32,000 bases of DNA from Paucimonas sp. (GCA_036677325.1 JAKFBY010000019.1:807-32806); one strand, 5' to 3'. Numbered from the stretch's first letter, positions 1-9,575 are shown. The notes: a model not told the origin generated them from the letters alone. Translations and numbers: made by a program.

Positions 1-759
1 AAGGTTAGCGGCTTCGGACGCGGTGTTAAAGAGTTTTTTACTGAAGATATTCCGAACCTTCCTGCGGGGGTCAAAGCATTAGTGACCGATCCAATAAATA
101 CCTTGGAAGCGGGCGCCTTACAAATGCAGAATGAGGCACGAGGTGCGTTCCTAGACGCTCGTGGGGGTAATTTCCGTACCATCGGAGAGCTGGAAGGGAA
201 CATGATGGGGAAAAGCGCCGCCGGAACGGTACTTGGGGTCAGTGGTGGCCGTATTGTTGACGGGATAATAGAGAGCGCTTCATCCTCAGCAAAAAGTGTA
301 GCGGTAGCTACTGCAAAGACACCGGATTCGGGTACAACAAGTATCCCAACATATACGGAGTTACAAGATCTTGCAGCTAATACACTAGACTTTAGTACGA
401 AGCCAAATGGTGCGGTATTTTGGTCTGGCGCGGACAACATGAATGTGGCTCAATGGTGGGCTAAACTAACTGGTAAGACAACCCTTGAGCAAACAGTTGG
501 TGGTCAATATCTCAACAGCTTGAAATTGTTTGACAATTTGCCCGGCTCAGATGCTGCACAGATATGGGATATAGCATCTGTACGATTTGCAAATGGCGCT
601 AGTGGCAACGTCAACGTATTCAATAAGGGTGCTACGCAATTTGGCGCTTATGGAGAGCGAACTTGGTGGAGATTGGAGCAACCTGCTTTGCAGACCAATC
701 CAAACGTAACAAAGATTCGACAGTGGAATTGGACTATGGATCCGAAAAAGTTACCATGA
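1..759 (+). CDS. C-terminal end of a larger polymorphic-toxin-type protein (open at window start). The last ~140 aa resemble the ADP-ribosyl cyclase / CD38 NAD-glycohydrolase fold.
   Basis: Frame 1 has no stop from nt 1 to TGA 757-759, so the listed ORF 82..759 is only the tail. A Ser/Ala-rich linker is followed by the ordered motifs FWSG, TLEQT, YLNSL, IWDIASVRFANGASGNVNVF and RLEQPAL. These parallel the conserved blocks of Aplysia cyclase and CD38 (recalled from memory, not searched). The DNA is AT-rich. Confidence 0.6.
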   Translation, partial: KVSGFGRGVKEFFTEDIPNLPAGVKALVTDPINTLEAGALQMQNEARGAFLDARGGNFRTIGELEGNMMGKSAAGTVLGVSGGRIVDGIIESASSSAKSVAVATAKTPDSGTTSIPTYTELQDLAANTLDFSTKPNGAVFWSGADNMNVAQWWAKLTGKTTLEQTVGGQYLNSLKLFDNLPGSDAAQIWDIASVRFANGASGNVNVFNKGATQFGAYGERTWWRLEQPALQTNPNVTKIRQWNWTMDPKKLP

Positions 760-1112
760 TTAGTAGATTGTTAAGAATATTCTTTCCTCGCTGGTATATC
801 CTTAAAGAGGAGGTTGCGCGTCAACATACAGGGCCTTACGCTGAAAGGAATAGTGCTGGATACACTGTTGCAATCATATGCAGAGGTGAGCAATTACTAT
901 ACACGGACGAGAATGGTGCATTAGTTTTGGAAATAAGTATTCCTGGTAAGTGGGTCGATGCGGCTTCGATAAAAAAATGGGATGAAGTTGGTAATGTTTC
1001 AGAAGATCAGCGCTCGATGATTATCGAGCGTGTTCAGAAATACTTTGAAACAGTACAAGGCTTTAGTATAAAAATCATAAATGGTAACGGATATTCTGGA
1101 GCCTCAAATTGA
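756..1112 (+). CDS. small protein translationally coupled to the toxin tip; candidate cognate immunity protein (family not recognised)
   Basis: ATG 756-758 overlaps the toxin stop as ATGA. The 118-codon frame is in frame with listed ORF 663..1112, whose upstream part overlaps the toxin CDS. The immunity role is inferred from position only. Confidence 0.5.
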   Translation: MISRLLRIFFPRWYILKEEVARQHTGPYAERNSAGYTVAIICRGEQLLYTDENGALVLEISIPGKWVDAASIKKWDEVGNVSEDQRSMIIERVQKYFETVQGFSIKIINGNGYSGASN

Positions 1113-1726
1113 CTATCAACGTTATTAAAGCAAATTTACGTAAGCGGCTTCTTTGCTGTGCTAATTTCGAAGATTTTATGTCCGAAGATTCGGATTTGGG
1201 CACCGCACTCAAAGAGAGTAAAATTAAAAGCAGCAATGACCTTTGTGAACGATTGAAGGATTTATTTGATAGCGCTGGCAGTGTTAGGGAGAAAATTCAG
1301 ATACTCACCCTTTGCCGTGATAAAAATTGCCCAATGCCTGATGTGAGTAGGGAGCAACTTATAGGGGTTGTAATTGAGTTTGCTACTGAGTTTGGTGTTG
1401 ATGCACTTGCAGTATATTCGGACTTGCAAGGAGCATGGTATGACGGCAAAGAAAATAGTCTTTTAGAGTTTGTTGTTTCGGATCGAAAGCAGTCGGTTTA
1501 TCAACAGTTGCGTGACGCAATTACTCACGGAATTCAAAAAGCCACTTCGCACCCAACGGATGTTCCCCCTCCGCCGCCGCCAGGTTATATCTTGATTAGC
1601 TTCCTATCGGCGAATGGAATTGCATTTGGAATGGGAGCTAGTCGTGATCTTGCGTCCGATAACGTCGGTGGGCCAATAATTCATGCTGCTTTGGAGTTGC
1701 GAAAAATTATTCTAGGGATCAATTAG
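1109..1726 (+). CDS. hypothetical protein, third gene of the toxin cassette (second immunity or accessory candidate)
   Basis: TTG 1109 overlaps the previous stop as TTGA, and GGAG at 1098-1101 lies 7 nt upstream. An alternative ATG is at 1178. The protein contains a PPPPPPGY stretch. No family recognised. Confidence 0.5.
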   Translation: MTINVIKANLRKRLLCCANFEDFMSEDSDLGTALKESKIKSSNDLCERLKDLFDSAGSVREKIQILTLCRDKNCPMPDVSREQLIGVVIEFATEFGVDALAVYSDLQGAWYDGKENSLLEFVVSDRKQSVYQQLRDAITHGIQKATSHPTDVPPPPPPGYILISFLSANGIAFGMGASRDLASDNVGGPIIHAALELRKIILGIN

Positions 1727-1860
1727 CGGTGTAGTGTAGATGGTGTCACCCATTAGCCTTCCGTAGTCAACAGTACGAACACAATACTCGCGGAGTTCCG
1801 CAATAAGCAAGAAAGGGGTCAGGTCTAGCAATGTAGCATTTCCATGTTATATTCCGCTCC

Positions 1861-2634
1861 ATGTCACGCCCCCTGCGCATCGAATTCCCCGACGCCCTCT
1901 ACCACGTCACTGCACGCGGTGACCGGCGCGAAGCGATCTTCGAGGATGACGCCGACCGGCATCTTTTTCTGTCGACCTTGGAACAAGTCATCAGTCAATT
2001 CAACTGGGTTTGTTATGCCTGGTGCCTGATGGATAACCATTACCACCTGATGATCCAGACGCCGGATGCCAATTTATCCAAGGGCATGCGTCAGCTCAAT
2101 GGTGTTTTTACGCAAGCAAGCAACCGACGCCATCGGCGCGTGGGCCACTTATTTCAAGGACGTTTCAAGGCGATCCTGGTCGATAGCGATGCCTATCTGC
2201 TGGAGTTGTCGCGCTATGTGGTGTTGAATCCTGTCCGGGCACGCATGGTGAAAAAGCCGGCCGACTGGCCCTGGAGCAGTTACCGGGCGAGCGTGGGCCT
2301 GGAGCAGCCACCGCCTTGGCTGGCTGTCGATGGATTGCTGGCGCAGTTTGCCAGGCGTCGCAGTGTAGCGCAGCAGCGCTATGCGCAGTTTGTCGAGGCA
2401 GGCATCCAGGCCGTTTCGCCATGGGTAGAGTTGAAGGGGCAGGTTTTTTTAGGCGATGAGCAGTTTGTCGAGCGCATGCAAGCCCATCTTCCGTTGAGCA
2501 AGGACGATGTGCAAATTCCGCTGGCACAGCGCCGCGCGCCGCCACGTCCCATCGAAGAAATTGCCGAGGAATCGAAAAACCGCAAGAGCGCCATCTTACG
2601 TGCTTATGCGACGGGCGGCTATTCCTACCAGTAA
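1861..2634 (+). CDS. REP-associated / IS200-IS605-like Y1 tyrosine transposase (RayT-type, COG1943), C-terminally truncated
   Basis: N-terminal LRIEFPDALYHVTARG, the HUH-type motif MDNHYHLMIQ, GHLFQGRFK and YVVLNPVRA are typical of this family. It is much more GC-rich than its flanks. See the finding on in-frame TAA codons. Confidence 0.85.
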   Translation: MSRPLRIEFPDALYHVTARGDRREAIFEDDADRHLFLSTLEQVISQFNWVCYAWCLMDNHYHLMIQTPDANLSKGMRQLNGVFTQASNRRHRRVGHLFQGRFKAILVDSDAYLLELSRYVVLNPVRARMVKKPADWPWSSYRASVGLEQPPPWLAVDGLLAQFARRRSVAQQRYAQFVEAGIQAVSPWVELKGQVFLGDEQFVERMQAHLPLSKDDVQIPLAQRRAPPRPIEEIAEESKNRKSAILRAYATGGYSYQ

Positions 2635-3026
2635 ATTGCCGAGTAATTCGAGATGCATTTCACTACTGTGGGCAGAGTTGTTCGAAGCGTTTTGGCTGAG
2701 AGCGGTACTTACTAGATTTTCCCCCAATTTCTTTTCATCGCCGGCCGGCTTGAGCGTAGCGCCTCGGGCGATGTCAGCGGCCACACAGCGGCAACATACC
2801 GCGAAATCGGGGTGGCGGAATTTATAGCCGTTCAGCATGTGGGCATTCCAATCCCCCTTACTTAACAACAACAGGATAACGCGCTTAGCCCGTAATGGCT
2901 TGCCCGCAATTGCAATATTCCACGATTGCAAAGACACACAGTGCACTGCCCACCCAACTTGTTAAATAATATCCAATAGGGCAATATTGCGTAGCATTAA
3001 ATATATTAACTATTTTCAATTTACAA

Positions 3027-3554
3027 ATGAAAAATATCTTCTTATTAATTCTCGTTGGTATATTGACGGGATGCGGGACATATTATGTGTCGCCAAAAAA
3101 CTTGGCTAATCCTGCAAATCTGACTGTTACGCTTGCGTCTACAGATCATTCCGCCCACATGACGGTACAGGTATTTGATAGCCCATCATGCAAAGCGTCG
3201 GCCGGCTATGGTTTGGCTGCAAACATTGGGAATGGACCTTTTATATCGAATAAGCCTGAAACAATTCAAGTCCGTCCAAACGAGAAAATCTATCTAAAAA
3301 TAACGTCGAGCGTAACTTACGCAGCGACAGGTGGATTTCCACGTTTTACTTGCTCAAATCTGGTTAGCTTTACTCCGAAGCAAGACGAGGCATACACACT
3401 TTCGACAAAGCTTTTGCCATATAGTGGTACGTGCTCGACCAGCATCGTAAATAGCCAGGATAAGCAGACTCCCCCCGATTTTGTGCACCTTAAAATTCCT
3501 GATAACTGCAAAGAAAAGGGGCTATTGGACATGTTGGAGTCACGGAAAAAATAG
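3027..3554 (+). CDS. hypothetical lipoprotein
   Basis: Signal peptide plus lipobox (MKNIFLLILVGILTGCGT). AT-rich. No obvious SD and no family recognised. Confidence 0.6.
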   Translation: MKNIFLLILVGILTGCGTYYVSPKNLANPANLTVTLASTDHSAHMTVQVFDSPSCKASAGYGLAANIGNGPFISNKPETIQVRPNEKIYLKITSSVTYAATGGFPRFTCSNLVSFTPKQDEAYTLSTKLLPYSGTCSTSIVNSQDKQTPPDFVHLKIPDNCKEKGLLDMLESRKK

Positions 3555-3821: not shown

Positions 3822-4460
3822 ATGGATGCAATCGGCCAAAGAACAAAATTAGTAGCGATCATCATGTTTGCACTAGTCGCATGTGGTTGTGCCTCAACAC
3901 AGCCAATCAGTGACGCTGATCGCGCCAAAGTGAAGACTGTTAAGCTTAACCGTGCTGTAGACAAGGGGGATCTGTTTTTGCTTGCTCCCAGTGGTGCCAA
4001 TATTGGCTTGATGTTCGGAATCGTTGGCGGACTTGCAGCGTCTGGCTCTATCCAAAATTCACAAAATGCATTCGCCGGATTTCTTGATAGAAATTCAATC
4101 GCAATCGAGAAGATTGTGCGCGAGGAAGTTGAGTTGGCCTTACGGGAATCGGGAAAGTCTGCAATTGTCAATGAAGGAGATGGTTCAGTACCGGCGTTCA
4201 ACATCACCATACCTCAGTATGGATTTGGCGTGACGAATCTCGGGGGCTCCAAGGTTGTGCCAGTTCTGTCTATCAAGTGTGAAATAGTTGATAGTGCCGG
4301 TAAAGTGCTTTGGAATTCAAGCGACCGCATGGGGCCCTCAATTGCCAATCCTATAGATTCTATAACTTGGGCGCAAATGCACGACAATCCTAAACTGATC
4401 GAAGAACAGTGGAGGAAGGCGTCTAAATATCTCGCCAAGAAATTAATTGACCAACTTTGA
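3822..4460 (+). CDS. hypothetical lipoprotein with a glycine-zipper-like segment
   Basis: A GGGGGA SD lies 7 nt upstream of the ATG. There is a signal peptide with lipobox-like LVACGC, and the segment GLMFGIVGGLAASG. Confidence 0.65.
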   Translation: MDAIGQRTKLVAIIMFALVACGCASTQPISDADRAKVKTVKLNRAVDKGDLFLLAPSGANIGLMFGIVGGLAASGSIQNSQNAFAGFLDRNSIAIEKIVREEVELALRESGKSAIVNEGDGSVPAFNITIPQYGFGVTNLGGSKVVPVLSIKCEIVDSAGKVLWNSSDRMGPSIANPIDSITWAQMHDNPKLIEEQWRKASKYLAKKLIDQL

Positions 4461-8737: not shown

Positions 8738-9517
8738 TTATGCCTTGCGGCGGCGAGCCAGGCCAAATCCAATCAGGCCAAGGCCAACCAGCAGGGCCGA
8801 CATCGGTTCTGGCACATCATTGGTGATTTCCCGGATCAGCTTGCTTTGGATTGCCGCGCCAAAGTCATCGAAGCTGTCAGCCTGCGTAACAAAAGCGTTG
8901 ACGCCACCCATGACGAAGTTCGTGTAATGCGCTAACAATCCAAATTCGTTACCGATGGTGATGCCATTGATGGTATCCACACCTGCTGCCAATGCGGCAT
9001 TACGGCCTGTGGTACCTGTCAAACCGACATTGCTTGCGCCGTCGCCGGAGACGTCGATTACCTGGCGCAGTGACTCAAAACCATTGGCTGCACCGCCGGT
9101 TTCTGTGCCAAAAAGCGGCGCGGCGGAAAAGAGCGCGGATTGGATGCCGGTTGAGCCATTGAAAGTTCGGGTGACCCCGCTGAGGGCGCTGGCAAAGCTG
9201 TTAGCGCTGGCAATGCTGTCAATTAATGCCCAGCCTACCTTCTGGCTAAATTGACCAACACCCGACCATTCCACATAGGTTACGGCGATGCCGCCACCTT
9301 GGCTGCCCAGAATGGCATTCTGAACGGCTGCGCTTTGAAACGCGTTGACATAGCCAGTCTTTTGCAGCGCATATTCAGTGTTATCGACGCTGCCGGAGAC
9401 GTCCACCAGCAACACCAGCTCCAGACCAACTGGCACCGCCGATGCTGCGCCAGATGCGAATACAGCGCAGGCGACTACTGCCAACTGCGTGATGAGTTTT
9501 TTGGTAAAGGATGCCAT
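8738..9517 (-). CDS. DUF1194 / vWA-like protein with a C-terminal PEP-CTERM sorting signal
   Basis: Signal peptide, then LVLLVDVSGSVD (vWA MIDAS-like DxSxS) and AVTYVEWSG as in DUF1194. The C-terminus VPEPMSALLVGLGLIGFGLARRRKA has the PEP motif, a TM helix and a basic tail. ATG at 9517 is preferred over 9532. Confidence 0.8.
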   Translation of the reverse strand: MASFTKKLITQLAVVACAVFASGAASAVPVGLELVLLVDVSGSVDNTEYALQKTGYVNAFQSAAVQNAILGSQGGGIAVTYVEWSGVGQFSQKVGWALIDSIASANSFASALSGVTRTFNGSTGIQSALFSAAPLFGTETGGAANGFESLRQVIDVSGDGASNVGLTGTTGRNAALAAGVDTINGITIGNEFGLLAHYTNFVMGGVNAFVTQADSFDDFGAAIQSKLIREITNDVPEPMSALLVGLGLIGFGLARRRKA

Positions 9518-9575
9518 GCAAGTTGCTCCCATTAGGTTGAGTTATCAAGTAACAAAATTTAACAGTCGGCATATA

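Follow-up and report, generated by a model that had tools for sequence, protein, structure and literature searches.

A minimal, cysteine-free ADP-ribosyl cyclase-type tip on a predicted polymorphic toxin of Paucimonas sp. and its putative immunity genes

Introduction

A stretch of 32,000 nucleotides (nt) from Paucimonas sp. (GCA_036677325.1, JAKFBY010000019.1:807-32806), which will be referred to as the window, begins within a gene whose last part resembles the ADP-ribosyl cyclase (ARC) CD38. This raises the question of whether the truncated gene ends in the enzymatic tip of a toxin and, if so, which product would be formed, what would protect the producing cell and on which carrier the tip is found. 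An initial annotation, made from the sequence alone, had described a cysteine-free, minimal ARC-like domain at the end of a large toxin-type protein, followed by overlapping small open reading frames (ORFs). Here, we report that nt 331-756 very probably encode a Tox-ARC domain, that is, a minimal, disulfide-free version of the CD38/ADP-ribosyl cyclase fold, representing the exchangeable C-terminal tip of a polymorphic toxin. This assignment is carried by the fold, the catalytic residues, the synteny with two downstream genes (ORF2 and ORF3) and the modular exchange of the tip between carriers.

Tox-ARC tips were predicted by Zhang et al. (2012; PMC3482391) on carriers linked to the type II, V, VI and VII secretion systems (T2SS, T5SS, T6SS and T7SS), with Imm74 as the primary and Imm63 as the second immunity family. 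Colautti et al. (2025; PMC12356396) solved the structure of Tac1 at 1.4 Å and demonstrated that it hydrolyses approximately 12,000 NAD(P)+ per minute to linear ADP-ribose (ADPR). Residue E573 of Tac1 is essential; the glutamate at position 516 promotes hydrolysis of cyclic ADP-ribose (cADPR), and the E516A variant releases cADPR. Tac1 is inhibited by the Imm74 protein Tci1, and an unrelated immunity protein accompanies some T6SS-linked ARC toxins. The same study described Nac1, a bacterial ARC enzyme which has Ala at the position of Tac1 E516 and releases cADPR; Nac enzymes are stand-alone proteins without an immunity gene (PMC12356396). Martinkus et al. (2025; PMC12605009) solved the structure of the PAAR-fused ARCtox of P. 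ananatis, which depletes NAD(P)+ in vivo, is toxic to E. coli and to yeast, is neutralized by ARCimm and has about 1,075 homologues on PAAR, Rhs, FIX, LXG, TPS and other carriers. Both Tac1 and ARCtox yield linear ADPR and no detectable cADPR (PMC12356396, PMC12605009). The statement in the initial annotation that such tips are essentially uncharacterized biochemically in bacteria is out of date, because these two papers, both published in the Journal of Biological Chemistry in 2025, provide structures and NAD(P)+ hydrolysis, together with mutagenesis, product analysis and immunity data. The toxin class is therefore known, having been predicted in 2012 and characterized in 2025, and only the ORF3 family and a junction module upstream of the tip may be new.

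Results and Discussion

The C-terminal tip is predicted to adopt a minimal ARC fold

Frame 1 of the plus strand, on which all features lie unless noted otherwise, has no stop codon from nt 1 up to the TGA at nt 757-759. As initially annotated, it represents the tail of a longer protein, and the partial coding sequence (nt 1-759) contributes 252 amino acids (aa) to it. The ARC domain, supported by AlphaFold2, Foldseek, phmmer and the Pfam family PF02267, comprises aa 111-252 (nt 331-756). It occupies the C-terminal position of the encoded protein, is 142 aa long and contains no cysteine, and none was visible across the whole 252-aa translation. A Ser/Ala/Thr-rich linker, ESASSSAKSVAVATAKTPDSGTTS (aa 91-114, nt 271-342), ends at the recombination boundary of the tip. 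The motif blocks quoted in the initial annotation were all present in the given order, and their coordinates were checked against the DNA: FWSG (aa 140-143, nt 418-429), TLEQT (aa 161-165, nt 481-495), YLNSL (aa 170-174, nt 508-522), IWDIASVRFANGASGNVNVF (aa 188-207, nt 562-621) and WWRLEQPAL (aa 222-230, nt 664-690).

Searching the PDB sequences with phmmer identified Tac1 (9OUF) as the best match to the tip (E=1.5e-7); ARCtox (9RO8) was matched at E=2.9e-6, and CD38 and BST-1 were matched more weakly. The profile PF02267 (Rib_hydrolayse, ADP-ribosyl cyclase) aligned with aa 186-239 at 24.0 bits (E=2.9e-5), covering profile positions 131-183 alone. The closest homologue of the tip (P0001) reached 25.8 bits, which is above the cut-off of the family, and the scores of all sequences scanned against this profile ranged from 17.5 to 25.8 bits.

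For aa 111-252, an AlphaFold2 model based on nine sequences reached a pLDDT of 86.5 and a pTM of 0.83. With four strands and six helices, it has the two lobes of the minimal ARC fold, a helical lobe and a four-stranded β-sheet lobe. Comparing this model with the PDB by Foldseek resulted in 56 matches at E<=1e-3, headed by ARCtox (9RO8, E=8e-8) and Tac1 (9OUF, E=8.5e-7), both with a probability of 1.00, and followed in order by the Vibrio MARTX NADase domain, Aplysia cyclase, CD38 and BST-1. The best 50 of the 56 matches were all members of the ADP-ribosyl cyclase/CD38/BST-1 group, the two bacterial ARC toxins or the NADase domain of Vibrio vulnificus MARTX. The cyclase fold was thus recovered by Pfam (below the cut-off), phmmer and Foldseek, and the description as a cysteine-free, minimal tip of this fold holds.

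The metazoan enzymes CD38, BST-1 and Aplysia cyclase (PF02267) share with the tip the catalytic cleft, two Glu, two Trp and the order of the motifs. They differ in size, their domain of about 250 aa having extra helices and conserved disulfides, in contrast to the 142 cysteine-free residues found here; in the Foldseek alignments the tip spanned between roughly one third and 40% of the metazoan chains (TM-score normalized to the target 0.33-0.40). Whereas the metazoan proteins are ecto-enzymes or signalling enzymes, the tip would, by analogy to its bacterial relatives, represent a toxin acting in the cytoplasm. The RID-dependent transforming NADase domain of V. vulnificus MARTX (8KA1), also an ARC-like bacterial toxin domain and fourth in the Foldseek list, is an anti-eukaryotic effector domain located inside MARTX that was solved with a calmodulin-binding domain, and no immunity gene is expected for it.

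Two further observations concern the annotation of such domains. The PDB entry 9OUF, given as the Tac1 structure in PMC12356396, carries the molecule name 'Ribonuclease' although it holds the Tac1 ADP-ribosyl cyclase/hydrolase, which could mislead automated annotation. An ARC homologue of 248 aa (P0008, on a Logan contig of 1,000 nt; 40% identical) differs from the toxin tips in its many cysteines and its signal-peptide-like N-terminus, and might represent a secreted enzyme with disulfide bonds, of the Nac-like or eukaryotic type.

Catalytic residues are conserved in register

Residue equivalences were derived from the phmmer alignments with PDB sequences and the numbering in the Tac1 and ARCtox papers, and conservation was evaluated in an alignment of 23 sequences, including 20 subfamily tips. 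Trp141 of the FWSG block (nt 421-423) corresponds to the active-site Trp W273 of ARCtox; the position is Trp in 22 of the 23 aligned sequences (19 of the 20 subfamily tips) and Tyr in the remaining one (L024). Glu163 of TLEQT (nt 487-489) corresponds to Tac1 E516, ARCtox E299 and CD38 E146. Trp189 of IWDIAS (nt 565-567) is equivalent to Tac1 W540 and ARCtox W323, and every homologue aligned has Trp or, in two cases, Phe at this position. Glu226 of RLEQP (nt 676-678) represents the essential catalytic Glu (Tac1 E573, ARCtox E356, CD38 E226). Both glutamates are invariant across all aligned sequences; the Glu residues of TLEQT and RLEQP, as initially singled out, align with the experimentally defined pairs of Tac1, ARCtox and CD38. 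All four residues, W141, E163, W189 and E226, align with residues whose requirement in Tac1 and ARCtox was demonstrated by mutagenesis.

The subfamily tips contain zero or one cysteine each, with a single exception containing four. Because of this, the small and cysteine-free state looks like a general trait of bacterial ARC toxins rather than a special property of this tip.

The tip is exchanged between unrelated carriers

Tips 83-84% identical to the one studied here were found on three kinds of carrier: a haemagglutinin-repeat protein of at least 3,475 aa in a metagenome-assembled genome of Zoogloea (tip 84% identical), giant Rhs proteins with LysM of at least 2,793 aa, one of which was called at 5,988 aa, and a fragment (L031). 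In all three, homology begins exactly at the tip boundary, "SG(T/A)..IP(T/S)Y". More distant tips (52-65% identity) are located on Rhs proteins of approximately 1,400 aa with DUF6531 in Flavobacterium, Chitinophaga, Enhygromyxa and Cellvibrionaceae, spanning Bacteroidota, Myxococcota and Gammaproteobacteria, on a 457-aa protein with a weak match to the PAAR-like DUF4280, and on complete proteins of 400-580 aa without a known domain. Close homologues of the tip thus ride on Rhs, Fil_haemagg_2 and possibly PAAR-like carriers; the upstream sequence of the window itself is unlike any of them.

In the giant carriers, LysM lies between the Rhs repeats and the ARC tip (aa 2646-2699 in L016, aa 1949-1995 in L027). 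The N-terminus of a 400-aa relative (P0007) also appeared LysM-like by eye and was not detected by Pfam.

Two small genes are coupled to the tip

Directly downstream of the toxin gene, the ATG of ORF2 (nt 756-1112, 118 aa) at nt 756-758 overlaps the toxin stop codon (ATGA, nt 756-759). ORF3 (nt 1109-1726, 205 aa) follows with a TTG at nt 1109-1111 overlapping the stop codon of ORF2 (TTGA, nt 1109-1112); this start was assigned because homologues share the N-terminus encoded from there. The GC content amounts to 0.43 and 0.40 over nt 501-1500 versus 0.50-0.60 across most of the remaining window. The overlapping small ORFs in AT-rich DNA that had been noticed initially are therefore real features of the locus, and the proposed polymorphic-toxin architecture with downstream immunity ORFs was borne out by the comparative loci described in the following.

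Of the 24 related loci that were searched, 15 had an ORF2 homologue directly 3′ of the ARC tip, and the same was seen in L027/L028 and L031/L032. ORF2 alone matched Imm74 (PF15603) with 13.6 bits (E=0.074). Seven of 18 members of the ORF2 family matched Imm74 independently, all below threshold (best E=0.0056), and it was the sole Pfam family recurring among these 18 members. On the strength of these sequence matches we conclude that ORF2 is a distant relative of Imm74 rather than a formal member, and read it as the putative cognate immunity gene encoding a divergent Imm74-like protein.

ORF3 belongs to a conserved family without annotation and had no match in Pfam, NCBIfam or PADLOC. The tip is followed by ORF2 and then ORF3 in L007, L027/L028, L031/L032 and L002/L006, and in the Lysobacter Rhs giant (L016) an ORF3 homologue is the sole gene downstream of the tip, so that ORF3 is tied to the tip in five divergent contexts. 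Orphan copies of ORF3 adjoin the T6SS genes DotU and TssF. ORF3 is probably a second, alternative and non-homologous immunity protein, since its linkage to the tip, its solo position in L016 and its orphan T6SS-linked copies resemble the behaviour of immunity genes. A match to Imm63, the other published immunity family for Tox-ARC, was not obtained in the Pfam scan at E<=1, and for this reason ORF3 may represent an immunity family that has not yet been catalogued. It is a candidate for the "alternative immunity" which Colautti et al. inferred for some T6SS-linked ARC toxins (PMC12356396).

One of the orphan loci (L030; Logan SRR26153296, 202-4512) deserves mention on its own. Here, the ORF3 homologue overlaps the end of a 321-aa gene annotated as TssF, and the run of small ORFs behind it holds a Pfam-positive Imm74 gene. 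The array looks like a T6SS-linked polyimmunity island.

The carrier protein contains a rare putative junction module

Exact-protein look-up of ORF2 returned a single contig (L001, Logan, 3,972 nt), on which ORF2, ORF3 and the transposase gene are likewise found and the toxin frame runs 474 nt further upstream. The 158 aa added by L001 extend the toxin to at least 410 aa; no start was reached and the 5′ end is still open. Further attempts to recover the missing 5′ end resulted in no match in E. coli genomes and no exact match in the genome, metagenome or viral contig collections, and the look-up of a neighbouring 175-aa ORF, aimed at the same end, returned nothing. The delivery module for which the initial annotation had suggested to look upstream was not found in the 268 aa now available before the tip. 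In particular, neither VENN nor Rhs-core 'DPxGL' motifs were seen by eye in the L001 translation, a word-indexed search returned no homologues of the 268 aa, and the N-terminal 136 aa of L001 had no detectable relatives. That the protein is "large", as claimed initially, is unproven because the carrier N-terminus was not recovered; its relatives can be as short as 400 aa or exceed 5,900 aa.

The sole upstream part with relatives is a segment of about 100 aa (approximately aa 3-102, nt 7-306; SGFGRGVKEFFTEDIPNLP...LDARGGNFRTIGELEG...AAGT), for which exhaustive phmmer searching yielded 12 matches among 1.84 billion representatives. The best relative, 55% identical, covers residues 5979-6062 of a 6,228-aa protein, 170-250 residues from its end. 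The remaining relatives are 278-3,464 aa long, and the C-termini of the five sequences that were read (278-767 aa) differ; a 517-aa Undibacterium paralogue with a different tip is 43% identical in this segment. The consensus of the module (window nt 7-306; P0019-P0030), 'SPHLTLGDVG..F.T.DIPN.P...LE.G.L..Q..AR.A.LDAR.GNFRT.GELEG', corresponds to no Pfam family. We interpret this rare conserved segment, found upstream of unrelated tips, as a putative junction (pre-toxin) module.

Taken together, one may tentatively propose, with rather more doubt than confidence, that ORF3 constitutes an uncatalogued ARC-toxin immunity family unrelated to Imm74, resulting in a dual-immunity cassette, and that the junction segment is a new pre-toxin domain. 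If so, two structurally different inhibitors of one NADase would move as a unit among Rhs, haemagglutinin-type and short carriers, and the 'SPHLTLGDVG...LDARGGNFRT' segment would mark the point of recombination in a manner similar to the VENN and PT-TG motifs.

The Undibacterium paralogue is part of an array of three genes encoding proteins of 469, 517 and 579 aa in Undibacterium pigrum (L011; NZ_QJKB01000007.1, 3031-10809). The three share an unannotated N-terminal region of about 110 aa ('MxNFQRIFGDDGLPYLIDTS...GYGQDMARFREF') and differ in their C-termini, one of which is an ARC tip. A GH108/PG_binding_3 gene is located nearby and secretion genes are not adjacent; the array may represent a family of polymorphic toxins whose trafficking domain has not been described. 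The upstream region of the Paucimonas carrier was also compared with the shared N-domain of these paralogues, and this candidate was rejected (hhalign probability 0.6%).

Proposed mode of action and alternative explanations

The enzymatic activity and its product, the toxicity, the route of delivery and a role of ORF2 and ORF3 in immunity are proposed here by analogy to Tac1 and ARCtox. The carrier protein would deliver the ARC tip into a neighbouring cell, where NAD+ and NADP+ would be bound via W141 and W189 in the cleft that separates the helical lobe from the four-stranded sheet. E226 would catalyse the release of nicotinamide and E163 would promote hydrolysis of the cyclic intermediate, so that the main product is proposed to be linear ADPR or its 2′-phosphate. 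The rapid loss of NAD(P)+ would stop growth. The producer would be protected by the translationally coupled, Imm74-like ORF2, which probably plugs the active-site cleft, and probably also by ORF3 as an unrelated immunity-type protein. Tip, ORF2 and ORF3 form a low-GC cassette, which was passed between unrelated Rhs, haemagglutinin-repeat and short carriers.

Several points argue against the proposed Tox-ARC cassette. The PF02267 score of the tip is 1 bit short of the gathering cut-off (25 bits), the Foldseek TM-scores are just 0.52-0.63 at a root-mean-square deviation of approximately 4-6 Å, and the match of ORF2 to Imm74 is sub-threshold, formal membership starting at 27.1 bits. Modelling did not yield a usable fold for ORF3 (AlphaFold2 pLDDT 55); the Foldseek search with this model, which returned nothing at E<=1e-3 and a best TM-score of 0.29, was treated as uninformative. 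Neither a Pfam domain nor a delivery domain was detected in the 268 aa upstream of the tip, the carrier N-terminus lying beyond L001, and a scan of the 25 largest ORFs in the 31 kb downstream revealed no toxin-delivery secretion genes. Finally, the predicted product, ADPR and not cADPR, is taken by analogy from a one-residue rule derived from Tac1 and Nac1.

The findings on delivery bear on the alternative that survives best. The locus might be a stranded cassette, a displaced tip with its immunity genes that lacks a delivery module and is kept as a recombination reservoir or for the sake of the immunity genes. Besides the missing delivery domain in the 268 aa preceding the tip and the absence of toxin-delivery secretion genes from the other ORFs of the window that were scanned, such an origin would agree with an N-terminal part of L001 lacking detectable relatives, with a REP-associated tyrosine transposase 135 nt downstream of ORF3 and with the orphan ORF3 copies elsewhere. 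However, the frame is unbroken over at least 410 aa, with its 5′ end still open, none of the catalytic residues has been lost, and the tight ATGA and TTGA coupling has been kept. Moreover, short complete relatives (400-580 aa) which also have no known domains occur in non-secretion neighbourhoods. A missing recognizable module is therefore common in the subfamily and no proof of non-delivery, and we regard a stranded cassette as improbable.

The predicted product bears on a second alternative, a non-toxic cyclase of the Nac1 type that forms cADPR or another NAD-derived nucleotide for signalling or for interference with NAD-based immunity. Aplysia cyclase has the TLEDT glutamate and cyclizes efficiently nonetheless, and for this reason the Glu rule is not absolute. 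In addition, some bacterial ARC enzymes such as Nac1 do release cADPR (PMC12356396). In the tip analysed here, however, the position of Tac1 E516 is occupied by Glu (E163) in contrast to Ala in Nac1. Furthermore, the domain forms the C-terminal end of a long protein, with a junction module in front of it and immunity-type genes after it, whereas Nac enzymes stand alone, and PADLOC detected no defence-system signature for the toxin, ORF2 or ORF3. The possibility raised initially that the product interferes with NAD-derived immune signalling found no support, given the missing PADLOC match and the release of linear ADPR by the characterized relatives, and a Nac1-type enzyme appears highly unlikely here.

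A merely fortuitous resemblance, in which short motifs in a low-complexity region of other function mimic an ARC domain, would fit a Pfam match under the gathering score and an identity to CD38 of just about 20-25% in Foldseek, but is effectively refuted by the agreement of independent sequence and structure searches, the four catalytic residues conserved in register, the closest homologue clearing the Pfam cut-off and an immunity partner related to the family described for Tox-ARC.

Relation to characterized ARC toxins

Among the known systems, the tip at this locus is close to Tac1/Tci1 of Streptococcus parasanguinis (LXG, T7SSb; 9OUF), with which it shares an ARC core of about 140 aa without Cys in the aligned region, the W/E/W/E active site, the C-terminal position and an Imm74-type partner; conversion of NAD(P)+ to ADPR via a cADPR intermediate would be expected by analogy. 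In contrast to Tac1, to which the tip is about 26% identical (Foldseek), the carrier does not appear to be of the LXG type and the neighbouring genes look Gram-negative; ORF2 matches Imm74 only below the threshold, and the conserved ORF3 is extra. ARCtox/ARCimm of Pantoea ananatis (PANA_2924/2923, PAAR-fused T6SS; 9RO8) provides the best structural match. Its required residues W273, E299, W323 and E356 are all conserved in the tip, and it likewise consists of a polymorphic-toxin tip followed by a small immunity gene. It differs in sequence (again about 26% identity), in its junction module and in its PAAR and transmembrane modules, neither of which is seen in the available part of the Paucimonas gene, and a three-gene cassette is found here. 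The occurrence of ARC tips together with Imm74 on Rhs, haemagglutinin-repeat and T6SS-type carriers agrees with the original prediction for Tox-ARC/Imm74, whereas ORF3, having no Imm63 match, departs from the predicted Tox-ARC/Imm63 pairing (PMC3482391).

The locus thus adds a divergent subfamily to the recently characterized bacterial ARC NADase toxins and shows that the cassette has been exchanged between Rhs, haemagglutinin-repeat and short carriers in Betaproteobacteria, Gammaproteobacteria, Bacteroidota and Myxococcota. Both the junction module and the family of ORF3 would be modest, testable additions that leave the understanding of such systems unchanged.

Genomic surroundings

The transposase gene mentioned above (nt 1861-2634; NCBIfam NF047646, E=6.6e-27; Pfam Y1_Tnp) is located at the border of the low-GC cassette and DNA of higher GC content. 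Promoter and terminator scans of nt 1-3100 remained at background level, Rfam detected nothing in the window, and repeat searches yielded nothing relevant. The larger ORFs further downstream encode ordinary chromosomal functions, among them PilZ, an Orn/Lys/Arg decarboxylase, dihydrofolate reductase (DHFR), PhaC, a phasin and a Crp-family regulator; two-component systems, accessory proteins of type II secretion and a response regulator with EAL also belong to this set, as does a DUF1194 protein which is encoded on the minus strand (nt 8738-9532) and carries a PEP-CTERM sorting signal at its C-terminus. In combination with PhaC, the phasin and the 84% identical tip of the Zoogloea genome, this last protein hints at an origin of the DNA from a floc-forming betaproteobacterium. 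Two plus-strand ORFs closer to the cassette (nt 3027-3554 and nt 3822-4460) match no Pfam family and show lipoprotein-like N-termini by eye, LTGC and LVACGC being seen across the pair.

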